64,000 nt of DNA, from contig CAYRCD010000005.1 in assembly GCA_964422735.1 (NCBI GenBank), positions 13,039 through 77,038 on the forward strand, read 5' to 3'. Positions within the stretch are counted from its first letter, which is position 1, and every line of letters begins with the position of its first letter. The notes under the pieces were generated by a model. It saw nothing but the letters and a program-made list of their open reading frames with translations. It was not told where the DNA came from and made no database searches. Position numbers and translations under genes: made by a program. The DNA comes from an uncultured Dehalococcoidia bacterium. Lineage in GTDB: Bacteria; Chloroflexota; Dehalococcoidia; DSTF01; WHTK01. Of this stretch, positions 12,142 to 63,866 are shown in pieces.

Positions 12142-12438
12142 CCCGGCGTCGCGGCCCTCGTCCTGAGATTGCTGGAGAAGGACCCGTCGAAGCGCCCTAA
12201 GAGCGCCGCCGAGGTTGGACAGGCGCTGGCGGGGATCGACCTGAACGCGGCCTCAGCCCTTCGACAAGCTCAGGATGGACAGATCGCCACGCTATCCGTC
12301 CATCCCGAGTCCATCGAAGGATGGACCCCACGCAGGCGCTGACCCCATGTCCGCCAGACCTTCGCCGGAAGCGAGACAGATCTCCAACAGCCACGCCTCC
12401 GCCTGCATCAGCGGGTATACGAGGTGGTGTGGCGGTAG
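12142..12438 (+). pseudogene. collapsed remnant of a Ser/Thr kinase-STAND ATPase-cyclase paralogue
   Basis: One frame reads PGVAALVLRLLEKDPSKRPKSAAEVGQALAGIDL (kinase C-lobe end), a REP-derived peptide, a stop at 12340, RQTFAGSETDLQQ (ATPase start) and HQRVYEVVWR* (cyclase end). Each part resembles the matching part of the 25134..29918 protein. Confidence 0.75.
12257..12326. repeat. REP-like inverted-repeat doublet, family A
   Basis: CCTTCGACAAGCTCAGGATGGAC-17 nt-GTCCATCCCGAGTCCATCGAAGG; each arm matches the copy at 29591-29653 at 21/23. Confidence 0.85.
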
Positions 12439-12447
12439 GGCGCCGCC

Positions 12448-15542: not shown

Positions 15543-15605
15543 GGGACTGGGAACGCGAGCCTAGGAACTGATGGCTGACTTCTGAGGACTGAGAACTGAG
15601 GACTT
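15543..15605. repeat. degenerate heptamer tandem repeat
   Basis: GAACTGA TGGCTGA CTTCTGA GGACTGA GAACTGA GGACT (15565-15604) with weaker upstream units, between divergent galU and sodN. Confidence 0.7.
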
Positions 15606-25133: not shown

Positions 25134-28100
25134 ATGCCCAGCGAACGCATTCAACGCCGGATCGACCGCCTGTTGGACACGGCGGAAGAGGCTGCCGACC
25201 GTAAAGATTGGCCGGCGGCCGCCGAAGCTGCACGCGAGGCGCTCTCGCTCGATGCGGAGAACGACGACGCTAAAGCGCTACTCGGGGCCGCGGAGAGCAT
25301 GCTCCCGGGCGCGAGGCAGCTTCCGGCGTCTGGGGACCGTGCAGCGGCCGCCGAGCGCTCCGAGGCGGCGGTCACACCTCTCCCCGCTTCTTTCGCCGCC
25401 GGCCGTTACCGGGTGCAGCGCTTCCTGGGCGAGGGCGGGCGCAAGCGCGTCTACCTCGCCCACGACACCCGCCTCGACCGCGACGTCGCCCTGGCCGTGA
25501 TCAAGACCGAGGGGCTCGACATGGCCGGCCTCGCCCGCGTGCGCAACGAAGCCCAGGCCATGGCCCGCCTCGGCGACCACCCCAACATCGTCACCGTCTT
25601 CGACGTGCTCGAGGAGGCAGCACCGGGACCACGTAGCCGAGACTTTCCAGCCTTGGCGTCCGCCGTGCCCTACATCGTCTCCCAGTACATGGCCGGCGGC
25701 TCGGTCGAAGACCTCATTGCGAAGGCTGAGGACCACCGGCTACCCACCGACGAGGTGCTCTCGATCGCCACCCAGGTCTGCGCCGCCCTCGACCACGCCC
25801 ACCGCCAGGGCATCGTCCACCGCGACGTCAAGCCCGGTAACGTGTGGCTGGCAGGAGAACCAACAAGGGATGTAGGCGGGCCGCTTCAGCCGCCCGCAGG
25901 GGGTTCTGGTGGGGACGGCCGGACGGCCGCTCGCCCTTCGAGTCCCTCAGGGCGAGACGCGGGCGCCTCGTCCGGCGCAAGCGCGGCATCTCAATCTCGG
26001 GCCTCGTCCGGTTTCGTCCCTTCGAGTGCCTCAGGGCGAGCTCTTCGAGAACCTCCGGACGAGCGGGCTGGCGCCCGCCCCCCAACCTCCCCACGGGCAG
26101 AGGCCGCCAGGGCGAGTTCCCTCCCCACCGCCAAGCTCGGCGACTTCGGGCTCGCCGTCGCCCTCGACCGCTCGCGTGTGACCATGGCGGGCATGATGCT
26201 CGGCACAGTGGCATACATGCCGCCGGAGCAGGCTCTTGGCGGCGAGAGCACGCCGAAGGCCGACCTCTACTCCCTCGGCTGCATGCTGTACGAGATGGTC
26301 ACGGGGCGGCCGCCCTTCCTGGGCGAGGACCCGACGGCGGTAATAAGCCAGCACATCAACACGCCGCCGGTGGCGCCTTCCTGGCTCACGGAGCGCTGCC
26401 CGCCCGACCTCGAAGCGGTCATCCTCCACCTCCTGGCGAAGTCGCCCGACACCAGGCCGGAGTCGGCCGCGGAGGTCAGGGCGGCGCTGGCGAAGGTCGA
26501 CCCGGCGCAGAAGTCGGCCTCGCACTCCGACTCGACCGAGAACCCGCTCGACCGCCTCGCGCGCGGCGTCTTCGTCGGGCGGCAAGCCGAGCTGGAGAAG
26601 CTGCGTAAGGCGTTCGACGAGGCCTTCGCCGGGCACGGCTCCCTCGTCATGCTCGTCGGCGAGCCCGGCATCGGCAAGACGCGCACGGCCCAGGAGCTGG
26701 AGACTTACGCGAGGATGCGCGGCGCCCAGGTGCTCTGGGGCCGGACTCACGAGACCGGCGGCGCCCCCGCCTACTGGCCCTGGTACCAGGTCGGCAACGC
26801 CTACGCCGCCGCCAACGACATCGCGGCGATCGGCCCGCAGTTGCCGCCGGGCGCCAACGGCGAGCTCTCGCGCATCTTCACCTGGCTCAGGCAGCAGCCG
26901 AACTTCGTCGAGCCGGAGCCGATCACCGACCCGGAGTCGGCCCAGTTCCGCCTCTTCGAGGCCTACGCCGCCTTCATCCGGGCGATGGCGACTCAGACGC
27001 CCCTGCTCATCGCCCTCGACGACCTCCACTGGGCCGACAAGCCCTCGCTCTTGCTCCTCCAGCATCTGGGCCGGGAGCTGTCGCGGCTTCGCGTCCTGAT
27101 CGTCGGCAACTACCGCGACACCGACCTCTCGCGCACGCACCCGCTGTCGGAGGCGCTGGCCGGCCTGAACCGCGACCCCGGCTTCGCCCGCGTCGTCCTC
27201 CGCGGCCTCTCCAGGGCCGAGGTCGCGAACTACATCCGGGCGGCGGCGAACGTCGAGCCCGGTCGCGAGGTACTCGACCGCATCTACGAGGAGACGGAGG
27301 GCAACGCCTTCTTCCTCAGTGAAGTCGTGAACCTTATGGCCCAGGAAGGCACCCTGACCAAGGAGTCGGTCTCAGAGATTCGCATCCCCGACGGCGTCCG
27401 CGAGGCCCTGGGCCGGCGCCTGAACCGCCTCTCCGAGGAGGCGAACGAGCTCCTGCAGGTGGCGGCCATCATAGGCCGCGAGTTCACCTACGATATGCTG
27501 ACGCTCCTTGGCGACCGCGACGAGGAGGCACTGCTGAAGCTGATCGAGCAGGCGCTCGATGGCCGCGTGATCGAGGAGATGGGGCAGGCGGGGCGCTACC
27601 GCTTCACCCACGCCCAGATGCAAGAGACGCTGCTGGAGGAGCTTTCGACCACCCGGCGCGTGCGTCTGCACGGCCGGGTCGCGGAGGCGCTGGAGAAGCG
27701 CTGGGGCGAGCAGTTGGCGCGGGAACGGGCGCCGCGGCTGGCCCATCACTTCGTCGAGGCGTCGATGCTCTCGCCCCGCCACGCCCAAAAGGGCGTCCTC
27801 TACTCGAAGCTCGCTGCTGAGGAGTCAGAGGCGCGCAGCGCCTGGGACGAGGCGGCGCGCCACTACGAGAGCTGCCTCACCCTGATCACGGCCTCCCAGG
27901 AGGCTCTCGGCGAGGACGAGGCGGCGCTCCTCGTGGAATTGGGACGCTGCCTCCGCTACGCCAACCAGATCAGGCCGGCCTGGCGGTCCTTGATGCGCGC
28001 GACGACCATCTACCGCGCTCGCGGCGACGGCGCCGGCATGGCCCGCGCCGCCCTCGAGGCAAGCGAGATATTACCCCCCAGAGATCGGCTCGTCGCCCTA

Positions 28101-29918
28101 TGCGAAGAGGCCCTGAATGCGCTCGGCGAGTCCGATCTCCGTCTTCGGGCGCGCTTGTTACTCATGCGTGCCGGCTGGGAGTTCGATGACGCTTCCAAGG
28201 CAGCGGCCGCGGAGGCTGCAAGGATTGCGAATACGTTGGACGATCCCGCCCTCCTTGGCCGCCTGGTAGCCAGGGAAGCATGGGAGGCTTTCGGCGAGAA
28301 GCAACTAGACGAAGGCGTTTCTCTATTTCGGCGCGCCCACGCCTTGCTCGACGATGGAGGCGACCGCCAGGGGGCAGCCAGTAGCCTCTTTTGGGTGGCC
28401 GCCTGGATATTGTTCGAGGGCAAGCTCGACGAAGGAATAGCGGCTACTCAGGACGACCTCGCTTACGGCCGCAAGTTCCGGTTCTATGAACTTAACTGCC
28501 TGGCTTACCTGCAGGCAGCGGCCTTGATCCGCTGCGACTTCCAGCAGTTCGACGCTATCCTGAACGAGGTGACGGGCGACCACCATTGGATTCCCATGCT
28601 CCGCGCCGCTAGAGCCGAGATGGCCGGCGATACGGATGCCGCCCTCAAACTGGCGCCCACCCCGGACACGCCCGGTGGCACGGCGGAAGTTCTTCTTGCT
28701 CAGCTGTTGGGAAGCCTGGCCCGGACCAGATTCAACGCCGGCCATGAGGACGAAGCAAGAAAGTACGTGGCGGAATGTAGCAAGCAGCTAGGTCAGGTGA
28801 TGCTCGCACCAAACTCAGCCGCCTTTATCACCGCCCGTCATGAATTTCGTATTTATGCGATAGCGGAGCTGGACGAATGCTTACCCGCCCTTGGCGACGA
28901 ATCTCTAATCCAGGCTCTCTATGAAGAACTCGTCGAGTGGAAGATTCTCAGGTATTCCCCAGCTGACGCCCGCGGCCTCGACCACATCCGCGGCGCCCTC
29001 GCGTTGAGGCTTGAGCGCATCGATGAGGCGGAAGCGTGGTACCGCACCGGCCTCGAGTGGTCCGAGCGCGAGGGCTGCCCCGTCGAAGCCGGGCGCTGCC
29101 TCCACGGGCTGGCCGAGGTCGCGGAGCGGCGCGGCCAGACGCGGGAGGCGCTGCAGCACCTCGACCGCGCCATCGCCCTCTTCCAGCAGCACGGCGCCCG
29201 GCTTTACCTCGACCGCGCCCTGGCGCTGAAGCTGCGCCTTCAGGGCGTCTCGTCGGCCTCGTTCAAGACGTCGATCGAGGCCGTGACGGAGTCCGTCCAG
29301 GCCGAGAGGCCCGCCCTGCCGGACTGGACCTCCGCCCCCGAGGGCACCGTCACCATCCTCTTCTCCGACATCGAGGACTCGACAGTACTCACGGAGCGCC
29401 TCGGCGACCAGGCCTGGATGGCCCTCCTCCAGAAGCACAACGACCTCATCCGGACTCAACTCCGCGCCCACGGCGGCTTCGAGGTCAAGACGATCGGCGA
29501 CGGCTTCATGGTCGCCTTCCAGAGCGCCCGGCGCGCGCTCGAATGCGCCATCGAGATACAAAGGGCGATGGCATCGCTCGAAGCTCCCGTCCTTCGAGAA
29601 CCTCAGGATGGACAAGCGGACGCTCCATCTGTCCATCCTGAGTTCATCGAAGGACGCGGGGCGTCCGAGAACACGATCAAGGTCCGCATCGGCCTGCACG
29701 CCGGCGAGGCGATCAAGGACAAGGACGACTTCTACGGCCGCAACGTCATCCTGGCCTCTCGCATCGGCGGCATCGCCACCGGCGGTCAGGTGCTGGTTTC
29801 GTCGACGCTGCGCGACCTCGTGCAGGGCGCAGGCTTCCGCTTCGACGACGGCCGCGACGTGGAGCTGAAGGGGCTGACGGGAAAGCAGCGCATCTACGAG
29901 GTCGCGTGGGGAACGTGA
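25134..29918 (+). CDS. Ser/Thr protein kinase - STAND (AAA_16-type) ATPase - TPR - class III nucleotidyl cyclase
   Basis: Kinase LGEGG, HPNIV, HRDVKPGN, DFG, GTVAYMPPE, DLYSLG; Walker A GEPGIGKT and Walker B LDDLHWAD; helical repeats; cyclase TILFSDIEDST, VKTIGDGFM, VRIGLHAGE. Confidence 0.92.
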   Translation: MPSERIQRRIDRLLDTAEEAADRKDWPAAAEAAREALSLDAENDDAKALLGAAESMLPGARQLPASGDRAAAAERSEAAVTPLPASFAAGRYRVQRFLGEGGRKRVYLAHDTRLDRDVALAVIKTEGLDMAGLARVRNEAQAMARLGDHPNIVTVFDVLEEAAPGPRSRDFPALASAVPYIVSQYMAGGSVEDLIAKAEDHRLPTDEVLSIATQVCAALDHAHRQGIVHRDVKPGNVWLAGEPTRDVGGPLQPPAGGSGGDGRTAARPSSPSGRDAGASSGASAASQSRASSGFVPSSASGRALREPPDERAGARPPTSPRAEAARASSLPTAKLGDFGLAVALDRSRVTMAGMMLGTVAYMPPEQALGGESTPKADLYSLGCMLYEMVTGRPPFLGEDPTAVISQHINTPPVAPSWLTERCPPDLEAVILHLLAKSPDTRPESAAEVRAALAKVDPAQKSASHSDSTENPLDRLARGVFVGRQAELEKLRKAFDEAFAGHGSLVMLVGEPGIGKTRTAQELETYARMRGAQVLWGRTHETGGAPAYWPWYQVGNAYAAANDIAAIGPQLPPGANGELSRIFTWLRQQPNFVEPEPITDPESAQFRLFEAYAAFIRAMATQTPLLIALDDLHWADKPSLLLLQHLGRELSRLRVLIVGNYRDTDLSRTHPLSEALAGLNRDPGFARVVLRGLSRAEVANYIRAAANVEPGREVLDRIYEETEGNAFFLSEVVNLMAQEGTLTKESVSEIRIPDGVREALGRRLNRLSEEANELLQVAAIIGREFTYDMLTLLGDRDEEALLKLIEQALDGRVIEEMGQAGRYRFTHAQMQETLLEELSTTRRVRLHGRVAEALEKRWGEQLARERAPRLAHHFVEASMLSPRHAQKGVLYSKLAAEESEARSAWDEAARHYESCLTLITASQEALGEDEAALLVELGRCLRYANQIRPAWRSLMRATTIYRARGDGAGMARAALEASEILPPRDRLVALCEEALNALGESDLRLRARLLLMRAGWEFDDASKAAAAEAARIANTLDDPALLGRLVAREAWEAFGEKQLDEGVSLFRRAHALLDDGGDRQGAASSLFWVAAWILFEGKLDEGIAATQDDLAYGRKFRFYELNCLAYLQAAALIRCDFQQFDAILNEVTGDHHWIPMLRAARAEMAGDTDAALKLAPTPDTPGGTAEVLLAQLLGSLARTRFNAGHEDEARKYVAECSKQLGQVMLAPNSAAFITARHEFRIYAIAELDECLPALGDESLIQALYEELVEWKILRYSPADARGLDHIRGALALRLERIDEAEAWYRTGLEWSEREGCPVEAGRCLHGLAEVAERRGQTREALQHLDRAIALFQQHGARLYLDRALALKLRLQGVSSASFKTSIEAVTESVQAERPALPDWTSAPEGTVTILFSDIEDSTVLTERLGDQAWMALLQKHNDLIRTQLRAHGGFEVKTIGDGFMVAFQSARRALECAIEIQRAMASLEAPVLREPQDGQADAPSVHPEFIEGRGASENTIKVRIGLHAGEAIKDKDDFYGRNVILASRIGGIATGGQVLVSSTLRDLVQGAGFRFDDGRDVELKGLTGKQRIYEVAWGT
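25633..25657 (+). repeat. GTAG-type REP, family C, inside the kinase CDS
   Basis: GTAGCCGAGACTTTCCAGCCTTGGC matches the intergenic copy at 63795-63819 at 22/25. Confidence 0.78.
25872..26066 (+). repeat. cluster of REP-like hairpins inside the kinase CDS
   Basis: GTAG-GCGGGCCGCTTCAGCCGCCCGC at 25872-25897; family A-like units at 25930-25956, 26018-26041 and 26043-26066 (CTTCGAnnnnCTCnGG). Confidence 0.78.
29588..29656. repeat. REP-like doublet, family A, inside the cyclase domain
   Basis: CGTCCTTCGAGAACCTCAGGATGGAC-17 nt-GTCCATCCTGAGTTCATCGAAGGACG. Confidence 0.85.
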
Positions 29919-53443: not shown

Positions 53444-53451
53444 TATGTTTG

Positions 53452-56148
53452 ATGAGATCGCTTCCCGCCGCGGCCGGCTTGATCCTGGCCTTGTATCTGG
53501 CCGTCCGAGGCGTGGCGCCGCCGGCGCCGGAGCGGCTGCATGTCGCGGTCATTGCCGCGGAATCGTACGACGGCGCCCTCATGATCGACTCCGACGTCGA
53601 GGACCAGACGCGCCGCGCCGGCCTCATCGTCGTCGGCCGCGTGGCCAAGACCCAGGCGAAGAGCATCCCAGGTAGCGTCGAGACGACCGTCACCGTGGAC
53701 GTGGAGCGTCCACTGAAGGGCACTGCCGGCCCGACGGTTACCTTCACTCTTCCCGGAGGCGGAATCGGCAACCTGCACGTCTTCGCCGCGGGCGTACCGA
53801 ACTTCCTGCCCGGCGAGCGCGTCCTCCTCTTCATGCGCGGCCCCAACGACCCTCGCCTGGTGCAGATGTGGCAGTCGAAGTTCTCGCTGGCCGGAAACGA
53901 GGCGGTGCAGCTCGAATCGAAGACCAGGATGCCGATCGCGGACATGGAGCGGCGCGTGGGCAACGTCACGGGCCGGACCGCCTTCATCGGCGCCTCGTCA
54001 GACACGGTCTCCGTCATCGGCTTCACCACCTTCTGCCTGCCCTGGAAGTCGGCTGACCTTCCGGTGCCGTTCGAGGTGACATCGGCGAATCCGGGGGCTG
54101 GTGGCGCTACGGGCGTGAACTTTACCCGGCTCGCGTACGATTCCTGGCACAACTGGCAGGCTTTACCCGACTCCTTCCCTTCGTTCCGCTATACGGGCAC
54201 GGCGACGCACGACCCCAACAACCACAGCGATGGGTTCAACACGGTTTCTTACACCGACCTCGACAGCTGGGGCAGCGGGACGATCGGCATCAACTTCTGC
54301 ACCACCAACGCCACCGAGCGCATCGATTCCGACACGTTTATCGACAATACCGGCTGGACCTGGGACTGGGACGACAGCAACGGCATCACCGGGGGAACGC
54401 TCGCCGAGCAGTCGACCATGGAGCACGAGTTGGGCCACGGCCTTGGCCTGGGCCACAGCGACGCCACATGCGACGGTACTGCGGCCACGCCCCTCATGTG
54501 CCCCGTCGTCATGACCGGGCAGCGCAAGATCATCCTCGCCGACGACCAGGCCGGCGCGGCCGCCAATTACCCGCTCTCCGGCGCATCCCCGGGAGCGCCC
54601 GGGAGCGTAGCCGTGATCGCCGGCTCCGGCTCTAACACGGTCCAGTGGACCACGTCGTCGGGCACGCCCTTCGCGTACGACGTCGAGCGCTCGGGCGCAG
54701 GCTGCGGCGGACCGTTCAAGTCGATCGGCACCGCCCAGCGCAGCGTCACAAGCTTCGTCGATAACGACTTCGGCGCCGGTCTGGGCGCCGGTCCCTACTG
54801 CTACCGCATGAAGGCGCTCGGCCAGGGCGGCGATTCGCCTTACTCGAACACTGCTTCCGTCGGCGGCCCATCGCCGACCCCCACGCCGACCGGGACACCC
54901 ACACCAACTCCCACCTTGACTCCCACACCAACCGCGACGAACACACCGTCTCCAACGGCGACGCGGACGCCGACCGCCACGGCGACGGCGACGGCCACGC
55001 AGACGCCCGTGCCTCAGTATGGCGTCACCTGGGGCGCCCACACGACGCCGGCGTCGCTCCTCGCGGGCTCGACGAACTTCGTCAACCTTACGTTCACGAA
55101 CGCGGGACAGCTGACATGGCAGAACAGCGGCGCGAACCCCGTGAGATTCGCCTATCACTGGAAAAACGGCGCCTGTCCGGGCTCGACAACGGCAACGTGG
55201 GATGGCGTACGGACGAACCTTGGCGCTCCGGTGAGCACGGGCGCGATCGTCTCGGCCCTGTCCGCCCAGATCAACGCCCCCGCCGCTTTCGGGACGTACT
55301 GTCTCGTCTATGACCTCGTCCGTGAAGGCATCACCTGGTTCAGCTGGCAAGGCGCTAACACCCTGGCCGTCACCGTGAATGTCACCGCGCCAACCTACGG
55401 CGTGTCGTGGGGATCGACCTCTACGCCGGCGAGCCTTAACGCCGGCGTAACCACGAACGTTACGATCTCGTTCACCAACATCGGCATGCTGACCTGGGAC
55501 CCGGGCGGCGGCAATCCCGTGCATCTCGCCTACCACTGGAAGAGCGGCGCCTGCCCCGGCGGTGCAACCGCGGTCTTCGACGGACGGCGCACCAACCTGC
55601 CGGCTAACGTCGCCCCCGGCGCCGCGGTGAACAACCTATCGGCGCAGGTTATGGCGCCGTCATCGTCCGGCACCTACTGCCTGGTCTACGACCTCGTGCG
55701 CGAAGGCATTACCTGGTTCAGCTGGCAGGGTGCGGCCACGCTGACGCGGACGATAACGGTGAATGCGCCCGCGTACGCAGTTTCCTGGGGCGCGGACACG
55801 ACGCCCGCCTCCATGCAGGTCAGCACCGACAACGCCGTGACGCTGACATTCACGAACACGGGATCACTGACCTGGGATAGCCTCGGGGCGAACAGGGTCA
55901 ATCTCTCCTATCACTGGAGGAACGGCGCCTGCCCCGGCGGGTCGACGGCGGTGTGGGACGGGTTAAGGACAGGCTTGCCCGCGGACGTTCCCAGCGCCAA
56001 TACGGTCACCAACCTGAACGCGACGATCCGTGCGCCCACGGCGGCCGGGACCTACTGCCTGCAGTTCGACCTCGTGCGCGAGGGCATCACCTGGTTTAGC
56101 TGGCAGGGCGCCGCCACTCTGGCACGCACGGTAACAATCACACCCTAA
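53452..56148 (+). CDS. secreted metzincin (M10/matrixin-like) metalloprotease with FN3-like domain, Pro/Thr linker and three Ig-like repeats
   Basis: Signal peptide; HELGHGLGLGH and Met-turn LMCP; (TP)n/(TA)n linker at ~54868-55010; three 126-aa repeats. Confidence 0.82.
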   Translation: MRSLPAAAGLILALYLAVRGVAPPAPERLHVAVIAAESYDGALMIDSDVEDQTRRAGLIVVGRVAKTQAKSIPGSVETTVTVDVERPLKGTAGPTVTFTLPGGGIGNLHVFAAGVPNFLPGERVLLFMRGPNDPRLVQMWQSKFSLAGNEAVQLESKTRMPIADMERRVGNVTGRTAFIGASSDTVSVIGFTTFCLPWKSADLPVPFEVTSANPGAGGATGVNFTRLAYDSWHNWQALPDSFPSFRYTGTATHDPNNHSDGFNTVSYTDLDSWGSGTIGINFCTTNATERIDSDTFIDNTGWTWDWDDSNGITGGTLAEQSTMEHELGHGLGLGHSDATCDGTAATPLMCPVVMTGQRKIILADDQAGAAANYPLSGASPGAPGSVAVIAGSGSNTVQWTTSSGTPFAYDVERSGAGCGGPFKSIGTAQRSVTSFVDNDFGAGLGAGPYCYRMKALGQGGDSPYSNTASVGGPSPTPTPTGTPTPTPTLTPTPTATNTPSPTATRTPTATATATATQTPVPQYGVTWGAHTTPASLLAGSTNFVNLTFTNAGQLTWQNSGANPVRFAYHWKNGACPGSTTATWDGVRTNLGAPVSTGAIVSALSAQINAPAAFGTYCLVYDLVREGITWFSWQGANTLAVTVNVTAPTYGVSWGSTSTPASLNAGVTTNVTISFTNIGMLTWDPGGGNPVHLAYHWKSGACPGGATAVFDGRRTNLPANVAPGAAVNNLSAQVMAPSSSGTYCLVYDLVREGITWFSWQGAATLTRTITVNAPAYAVSWGADTTPASMQVSTDNAVTLTFTNTGSLTWDSLGANRVNLSYHWRNGACPGGSTAVWDGLRTGLPADVPSANTVTNLNATIRAPTAAGTYCLQFDLVREGITWFSWQGAATLARTVTITP
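55018..56145 (+). repeat. three intragenic tandem repeats, 378-bp period
   Basis: Units start at 55018, 55396 and 55774; each has YHWxxGACPG and YCLxxDLVREGITWFSWQGA. Confidence 0.92.
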
Positions 56149-63794: not shown

Positions 63795-63866
63795 GTAGGC
63801 GAGGCTTTCCAGCCTTGCCGGCATGCGTGCGCGGATTCGACGCCGCGGCTGGAAAGCCCCGGCTAC
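63795..63866. repeat. inverted pair of GTAG-type REPs, family C
   Basis: GTAGGCGAGGCTTTCCAGCCTTGCC (63795-63819) and reverse copy GTAGCCGGGGCTTTCCAGCCGCGGC (63842-63866). Confidence 0.85.

Follow-up and report, generated by a model that had tools for sequence, protein, structure and literature searches.

In-frame interspersed repeats, probably tolerated insertions, at three loops of a kinase-STAND-cyclase gene in an uncultured Dehalococcoidia bacterium

How does a long signalling gene come to hold short repeats of its own genome at three separate places and still read through from end to end? The question is raised by a stretch of 64,000 nt, here called the window (C5:13039-77038, contig CAYRCD010000005.1), in GCA_964422735.1, the metagenome-assembled genome (MAG) of an uncultured Dehalococcoidia bacterium. 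The gene is a single open reading frame (ORF) for a protein with kinase, STAND NTPase and cyclase parts. An original prediction, made from the letters alone, had described extra sequence with palindromes at three places of this ORF and had proposed that the gene family is a preferred target or a tolerant sink for repetitive extragenic palindromes (REPs). The explanation that we prefer, with a probability of about 0.78, is that these are tolerated insertions of selfish repeats into an intact gene.

The ORF is intact, with 1594 codons and no stop, and gives a protein of 1594 aa. The Pfam profiles Pkinase (1.1e-39, split in two stretches), AAA_16 (4.1e-26), TPR_12 (3.7e-8) and Guanylate_cyc (7.9e-24) all matched the same chain, which makes it a kinase-STAND-cyclase protein. 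The kinase also has HRD and DFG motifs. Among 8000 candidates scored with the kinase part, 3602 proteins were retrieved at E ≤ 1e-30, and most of the 120 listed kinase-part matches have the same Pfam set. The closest homologues in the genome collection come from Dehalococcoidia, Tepidiformaceae or Chloroflexota MAGs. The MAG studied here is Dehalococcoidia/Tepidiformales-like, has 66% G+C and comprises 2,529,350 bases in 119 contigs, with a completeness of 58.7% and a contamination of 0.85%. Besides decayed members, it holds four further full-length paralogues of the gene. They are named here by contig as C1, C37, C11 and C92 (the last cut off by the end of its contig), the focal gene being C5.

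Alignments with these paralogues and with homologues from other genomes confirm the predicted extra sequence at all three sites, where it keeps the frame and brings no stop. Two homologue sets were aligned, 13 proteins from related genomes and 42 from the genome collection, both taken from the same collection and possibly overlapping. At site 1, a window of 16 residues is the base state in 11/13 and 20/30 homologues, and the focal protein has 30 residues. At site 2, where homologues have a turn of 4-5 residues, the base state is a window of 17 residues in 12/13 and 30/31 homologues, and the focal protein has 105. At site 3 it is 23-24 residues in 6/6 and 13/19 homologues, and the focal protein has 49. 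Most homologues therefore show the base state at these sites and not an equally long loop. Judged from these alignments, the three sequences are inserts, not ancestral loops. Unrelated inserts were found in other genomes at site 1 (L029, L030, L052 and L071), site 2 (L054, P0006 and P0104) and site 3 (L036, L038, L039 and P0005). The closest protein outside this MAG, P0005, has none at site 2 and carries inserts of its own at sites 1 and 3.

The content of each insert was compared with the rest of the window and of the genome (Table 1). The edges of site 1 are exact to the base, the flanks of 30 nt being identical between the focal gene and C11. This insert holds one GTAG-headed REP unit of a family termed B. 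Positions 25633-25668 match 63795-63830, in an intergenic inverted pair, at 81%. The 14-nt head of the unit occurs 9 times among the GTAG+hairpin sites of the genome, and the unit is matched by up to 10 distinct intergenic loci. When folded against shuffled sequences, site 1 gave no significant palindrome overall (z -0.66). Site 2 is composite and has no copy elsewhere in the 64-kb window; the one interspersed unit that it contains, a GTAG-headed REP of 26 nt, belongs to family C. Arms of this family number 19 genome-wide at up to 4 mismatches, the site 2 unit included. Their copies have only a unit of 26-28 nt in common, with unrelated flanks, and the site 2 unit is matched by up to 7 intergenic loci. 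The three direct 23-nt repeats of this insert have one further genome copy, on contig C53, and the remainder is GC-rich sequence without matches. Folding gave z -0.22 over the full insert and +0.20 over its initial 65 nt.

Site 3 holds the only significant palindrome among the three sites. It is a complete element of family A, 69 nt long, with a folding energy of -56.7 kcal/mol and a z of -8.26, and none of 200 shuffles was equally stable. Positions 29591-29654 match 12258-12321 at 80%, and over 73 nt the palindrome shares 92% identity with a copy between genes on contig C8. It lacks the GTAG head, so it is not a GTAG REP in this sense; the short palindromic units at 25633-25657 and 25872-25897 both have that head. 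The predicted match to copies elsewhere in the window thus stands for sites 1 and 3 and falls for site 2. Likewise, the description of all three as palindromic is right for site 3, while sites 1 and 2 each hold just one small REP hairpin.

AlphaFold2 models of the kinase and cyclase parts were built from alignments of natural homologues. The kinase model has a mean predicted local distance difference test score (pLDDT) of 77.3 and a predicted template modelling score (pTM) of 0.74, model residue n being protein residue n+84; for the cyclase model the values are 82.4 and 0.81. Site 1 lies between strands E71-77 and E94-100 (mean pLDDT 51 over residues 81-90), presumably the beta4-beta5 loop of the kinase fold. 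Site 2 lies between E153-155 and E249-251 (residues 160-223 below 50), which we take to be the beta7-beta8 turn before DFG. Site 3 forms a coil, 93-122, between helix H71-92 and strand E123-131, with pLDDT values of 56, 51 and 54 in blocks of 10 residues. All three inserts are thus modelled in predicted surface loops between conserved secondary-structure elements. Since low pLDDT is expected at alignment gaps, the firm result is this position between conserved elements.

Table 1. Coordinates of the focal gene, its three inserts and related repeat features in the window
Feature	Position	Strand	Details and basis
Host gene: Ser/Thr kinase, AAA_16 STAND NTPase, TPR, class III adenylate/guanylate cyclase	25134..29918	+	ORF and Pfam
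Site 1 insert	25607..25666	+	60 nt vs 18 nt in paralogue C11; net +14 codons
Single GTAG-headed REP unit, B family, GTAGCCGAGACTTT subtype, small hairpin	25633..25657	+	Window match, census, fold
Site 2 insert, composite	25851..26126	+	Codons 240-331 (92 codons), net about +88; homologues with short turn
Single GTAG-headed REP unit, C family, in site 2	25872..25897	+	Pattern scan, alignment of copies
Three direct 23-nt repeats, related to A-family arm core	25934-25956, 26018-26040, 26041-26063	+	Window repeat search
Site 3 insert, cyclase loop between helix and RIGLH strand	29583..29657	+	About 25 extra codons in alignments
Complete A-family palindrome, 27-nt arms, 15-nt spacer	29588..29656	+	Arms 29588-29614 / 29630-29656, 89% complementary
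Relic of sixth paralogue (kinase C-terminus, linker, NTPase start), internal stop	12142..12440	+	tblastn to C92 residues 320-402
Intergenic B-family REP pair, inverted (REPIN/BIME-like; REPIN, pair of inverted REPs; BIME, bacterial interspersed mosaic element)	63795..63866	.	-45 kcal/mol, z -3.68

The repeat units in the inserts belong to families that are spread over the genome, as expected from the original prediction, and lie mostly between genes. Genome-wide blastn searches retrieved 17-41 matching pieces per query on many contigs, counting the query's own place and both strands. A scan for arms covered six families. The arms lying fully inside called coding sequences, out of all arms, were 7/22 for A, 3/3 for A-prime, 8/55 for B, 3/19 for C, 10/30 for D and 0/27 for E. 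A second census, free of motif choice, ran blastn with all intergenic regions as queries; a base counted as covered if at least 4 distinct intergenic loci matched it. Repeats covered 11008 of 446619 intergenic bases vs 1006 of 2082731 coding bases. A census of 13-mers (count of at least 8) was dropped as too permissive for a genome of 66% G+C with paralogues; it covered 190580 bases, mostly coding.

Families B and C are small hairpins with a GTAG head, and the GTAG+hairpin units form subfamilies. Family A is a palindrome of 64-70 nt. B arms occur as inverted +/- pairs with starts about 42-52 nt apart on contigs C5, C7, C10, C12, C17, C23, C29, C33, C46, C64 and C67, and the copies inside the focal gene are single units. 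The pair at 63795-63866 has six near full-length copies on other contigs. The B pattern was found in 27 of 41 related genomes searched, with the highest number of matches, 58, in this MAG despite its incompleteness, and the A arm in 16 of 41. Among the A-arm matches listed, nearly all of those from relatives differ in the last bases, mostly ...GGACGAACG, and most copies here end TGGACA. A short intergenic repeat of the window at 15575-15604, CTGAGGACTGAGAACTGAGGACT, is matched by 4 other intergenic loci.

Candidates for a mobilizer, which the original prediction had proposed to look for, are present. Two ORFs for REP-associated tyrosine transposases (RAYTs) exceed the cut-off of 80 bits for the NCBIfam equivalog NF047646 (REP_Tyr_transpos), with 101.1 and 114.3 bits, and one of them matches PDB 4er8 (E. 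coli TnpArep) at 5e-8. The RAYT gene on contig C32 is flanked by GTAG REPs of another subfamily, of the GTAGCGGAGGCC type. That on C46 is flanked by GGCCAGGCT-GGAA-GCCTGGCC hairpins, which are B-like and lack GTAG. We also observed that the C32 RAYT ORF (L022:1357-2151, - strand; 101.1 bits) has a GTAG REP unit within its own reading frame, with REP-derived peptides in an N-terminal extension.

In-frame copies were also found in genes unrelated to the focal one. By Pfam, the hosts include a class I tRNA synthetase, CoA_transf_3, NHL, TldD/PmbA, a molybdopterin oxidoreductase, a TPP enzyme, TP_methylase, Lhr, an amidohydrolase and Mfd/TRCF. The earlier statement that no other intact gene has such an insert therefore describes the window, where three of the six repeat segments are in the focal gene and three are intergenic, and does not extend to the genome, with copies in a tRNA synthetase, Mfd, Lhr, TldD and others. 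As a separate observation, the tRNA synthetase (L103; C6:32480-36013, - strand; tRNA-synt_1, Anticodon_1 and DUF5915) has the peptide TGLTQRERENT five times in an in-frame tandem after a D-type unit, and repeat-like peptides (RSGDLEVAR) at two other places.

The coding copies are concentrated in the family of the focal gene. With just 1.1% of coding bases, the five full-length paralogues account for 447 of the 1006 repeat-covered ones, a 72-fold enrichment, in line with the enrichment over other coding sequences that had been anticipated. They hold 12 of the 30 tallied repeat segments inside coding sequences (binomial P 2e-16), and 6 of 24 independent events when sites shared by paralogues are collapsed (P about 2e-7). 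Repeats cover 18 bases or more in 22 genes, and the five paralogues head this list, with 171, 81, 70, 63 and 62 bases. Four paralogues have two to four separate sites and C92 has one; other genes have one, rarely two.

Occupancy varies from paralogue to paralogue, and five repeat families were counted at the family's sites. Site 1 is occupied by B. Site 2 holds C and A-prime in C5, and D in C1, C37 and C11. Site 3 holds A in C5, C11 and C92, and a further type in C1. The linker between kinase and NTPase holds D in C92 and A in a relic of the family within the window. The frame is kept and the ORF is open in all five paralogues, each with a different combination of inserts. Since unrelated families, and inserts of other lineages' own, fill the same three loops, these loops appear permissive, and tolerance, a filter by selection, is favoured over sequence-specific targeting. 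Of the two options in the original prediction, the tolerant sink is supported by the 72-fold concentration and the 6 of 24 events, and the preferred target is less favoured.

DNA identity between C5 and C1 (G000:C1:55557-60329) is uneven. It is 95-100% over residues 105-220, site 1 included, and 100% over 145-218. It drops to about 45% at site 2, returns to 80-99% as far as residue 900 and falls to 30-50% in the TPR region. Such mosaic paralogues suggest that gene conversion or recent exchange spreads some of the inserts. For this pair, the mosaic could reflect gene conversion or assembly cross-talk between paralogues.

Under the explanation that we prefer, short selfish interspersed repeats of the bacterium's own genome would have invaded the gene at three places. 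GTAG-headed REPs of the RAYT-mobilized kind, together with A palindromes and other families, would insert throughout the genome. The survivors in coding sequence would be those that kept the frame, brought no stop and fell in a loop able to take extra disordered residues. Two of the permissive places would be in the kinase, the beta4-beta5 loop and the beta7-beta8 turn, and the third in a helix-strand loop of the cyclase. Duplication and gene conversion among paralogues would then have spread the inserts. A first insert may serve as a landing pad for others, and growth of this kind would explain the composite site 2. The inserts would be translated as disordered loop extensions, most likely with little functional effect.

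Several points weigh against this explanation. The 72-fold concentration is far above what could be put down to large proteins having more loops, and tolerance alone does not obviously explain it. The related STAND-cyclase genes without a kinase (on C46, C10, C45 and C51) all stay below the 18 covered bases that define the list of 22 genes. No RAYT in the 58.7%-complete MAG is tied to the B, C or A family, and the A palindrome has no GTAG head. An insert of 92 codons beside the DFG motif may not be harmless. Alignment gaps alone lower pLDDT, which makes the low values weak evidence of disorder. Genes were called with a simple codon-usage caller of our own (2196 genes, 82% coding), the genome is incomplete, and the case is known from DNA sequence and predicted structures.

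The inserts may instead have been recruited, with loops that tune kinase or cyclase activity or partner binding in each paralogue, or with a site 3 mRNA hairpin that controls translation or stability. We consider this unlikely. The enrichment is strong and specific to the family, and the combination of inserts differs in every paralogue. Frame and openness are preserved in all five, but the host protein demands retention of the frame regardless. Moreover, the inserted peptides are simply what the repeat consensus encodes, and unrelated housekeeping genes show the same. They lie in the catalytic domains rather than in the variable TPR sensor region, so the diversification of receptor loops that had been suggested does not fit. 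The site 3 hairpin is very stable for a structure within an ORF (-56.7 kcal/mol, z -8.26) and nearly intact in C5 and C11. However, in the comparison of paralogues its energy goes from -45.8 (C5) and -42.0 (C11) to -27.0 kcal/mol (C92, where the outer arm is lost). It is decaying in C92, with no sign of maintenance, and a comparison of C5 with C11 shows no covariation in the variable 4-nt blocks of its two arms. A terminator scan retrieved 2 sites, both on the - strand, vs 2.3 expected, and none on the + strand at the palindromes; Rfam gave 0 matches in the window at gathering scores. Control of the mRNA, also raised in the original prediction, thus finds no backing in these results. Reading the inserts as inteins or introns was dropped, as they are translated repeat consensus that also occurs between genes and nothing seen pointed to either.

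A further reading, which seems to us distinctly improbable, is that the family is a true hot spot, where lodged repeats act as recombination and landing sites that drive turnover. The turnover would take the form of nested loop growth, gene conversion and deletions, the last giving rise to the two decayed members described here. One is the relic at 12142-12440, which is 44% identical to C92 residues 320-402 (tblastn, E 9e-11). Its A-family palindrome, 12258-12321 (fold z -5.28), stands where C92 has its D-type insert. The match between this palindrome and site 3, which had been taken for an independent copy elsewhere, is real as a repeat match, but it lies in a paralogue relic and not in neutral intergenic DNA. 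The other is a 329-aa ORF at C48:17388-18374, in which the N-lobe of the kinase is joined directly to the C-terminal half of the cyclase. It has its own SAGSGQ-type insert at site 1 and adjoins a repeat unit of the VAPLREAAR type. From its sequence, this ORF appears to have arisen from a family member by internal deletion. If the hot-spot reading were true, selfish REPs would drive the remodelling of a bacterial signalling family at the level of its domains.

The insertion machinery itself might prefer this family, through a target hairpin or exposed single-stranded DNA, with repeats inside the ORFs driving deletions, fusions and gene conversion. This we judge very unlikely. In its favour, the enrichment has no clear explanation from tolerance alone, and the empty site 1 of C11 holds a small palindrome, GGGCT-CGC-AGCCC. 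It recalls the Thermomicrobium roseum REPs named GTAG-23, which sit in small palindromic targets according to the accessible text of Di Nocera, De Gregorio and Rocco 2013 (BMC Genomics 14:522; PMC3733652). A repeat is also found at or beside a breakpoint in both the relic and the C48 fusion. Yet families with and without a GTAG head share the same loops, which makes one common mechanism unlikely. The repeat at C48 is beside only one end of the junction, the small palindromic target is an observation on site 1, and the different inserts of other lineages at the same loops are simpler to understand under tolerance.

Misassembly, with repeats leading to a chimera that placed repeat sequence in the gene, can be set aside as extremely improbable: the MAG is fragmented (119 contigs, 58.7% complete), its repeats and near-identical paralogue stretches are prone to assembly errors and site 3 is uncrossed among the contig pieces listed, but separate per-run Logan contigs cross sites 1 and 2, frame and homology run on at either side of all three inserts, and C5, C11 and C92, on three contigs, share one codon position for the site 3 palindrome. 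The contigs of runs X1 (25807-26278) and X2 (25797-26267) each cross site 2 with 0 differences, and that of run X6 (25577-25714) crosses site 1. Since none of the 32 Logan contig pieces listed, out of 869, crosses site 3, its assembly support comes from the three paralogues only. A joint in the Logan contigs, 25606->25667 with 18 letters between, was considered as an allele with an empty site 1 and rejected, as it reproduces paralogue C11 to the letter, and C11 and the window have identical flanks. Two other Logan joints connect kinase-like to cyclase-like sequence with 10 or 34 letters between, 25530->29465 (sides of 27 letters) and 26036->29591 (depth 2.5). These joints may come from additional deletion derivatives, from different members of the family or from repeats at other loci.

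Tolerated insertion, if correct, offers a well-bounded example, beyond Rickettsia and Proteobacteria, of small mobile palindromes absorbed into working proteins as loop extensions. Particular kinase and cyclase loops would accept 14 to about 90 extra residues, and the three loops, used again and again, mark out permissive sites for insertion, a map that could help protein engineers. Annotators are warned as well, as repeat-derived peptides in proteins of Chloroflexota MAGs would be scars of mobile DNA rather than conserved motifs. The concentration in one family poses a testable question, whether it results from tolerance or from targeting.

Two side observations concern other repeats. An ORF of the window at 53449-56148 (899 aa) contains, at 55080-56135, a unit of 378 nt three times in tandem, 64-72% identical and probably a repeated protein domain. 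Two CRISPR-like repeats, with about 50 and about 30 copies, top the k-mer table of the MAG and lie on other contigs.

Palindromes inserted in frame are said to have been described in Rickettsia by Ogata and colleagues in 2000 and by Claverie and Ogata in 2003. Like these Rickettsia palindromic elements, the A palindrome of site 3 is one of a set of palindromic repeats found in frame in many unrelated genes, presumably translated with the host protein and compatible with its fold. The likeness is one of behaviour only. The A element has 64-70 nt and is GC-rich, whereas the Rickettsia elements are reportedly about 100-150 bp, AT-rich and specific to Rickettsia. They are spread over unrelated genes, while the repeats here are focused on one family. 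A summary of the Rickettsia elements is given in the accessible part of a review of miniature inverted-repeat transposable elements (PMC10969869).

The original prediction had treated in-frame palindromes as mainly a matter of Rickettsia, which is too narrow. In the accessible text of Di Nocera et al. 2013 (PMC3733652), GTAG and CGTC REPs are listed inside ORFs in several species. These intragenic REPs mostly encode 20-30 residues, sometimes twice per ORF, and clusters encode 43-82 residues. The hosts are often repair genes and tRNA synthetases, and the authors regard the REPs as insertions into linkers or loops that are probably neutral; the string 'Chloroflex' occurs once in that text. The repeats described here resemble those REPs in their GTAG heads, their mostly intergenic location, the presence of RAYT genes in the genome and the minority of copies in ORFs, and in both cases the hosts include tRNA synthetases and repair helicases. 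They differ in several respects. The host is Dehalococcoidia/Tepidiformales-like, several families occur together, some of them without GTAG, and one RAYT ORF itself holds a REP. The focus here is on one paralogous signalling family, there on repair genes, and site 2 reaches 92 codons.

Compared with REPIN-RAYT systems, as described in the accessible text of Bertels and Rainey 2011 (PMC3116915) and Nunvar 2010 (PMC2817692), the likeness lies in inverted REP pairs (63795-63866), RAYT genes flanked by REPs and families common to related genomes (B pattern in 27/41). Those systems are described as extragenic, whereas single units and a dimer-like palindrome are found inside ORFs here. No mention of intragenic REPs was found in the accessible text of the RepRanger paper (PMC12306157). 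Coding palindromes of Nematomorpha mitochondria (PMC6649704, accessible text) are likewise inverted repeats in coding sequence with both arms translated, but they are mitochondrial and eukaryotic, reach 284 bp and form no interspersed family with a transposase.

In the literature searched, which did not take in the supplementary intragenic list of Di Nocera et al. 2013, we found no published report of a REP focus on kinase-STAND-cyclase genes; that list could itself name kinase or Chloroflexi hosts. In-frame intragenic REPs and palindromes are already known from that paper and from the Rickettsia elements. What is new here is the host clade, the presence of several families together, the focus on one signalling family with three recurrent loops, and the REP inside a RAYT gene.

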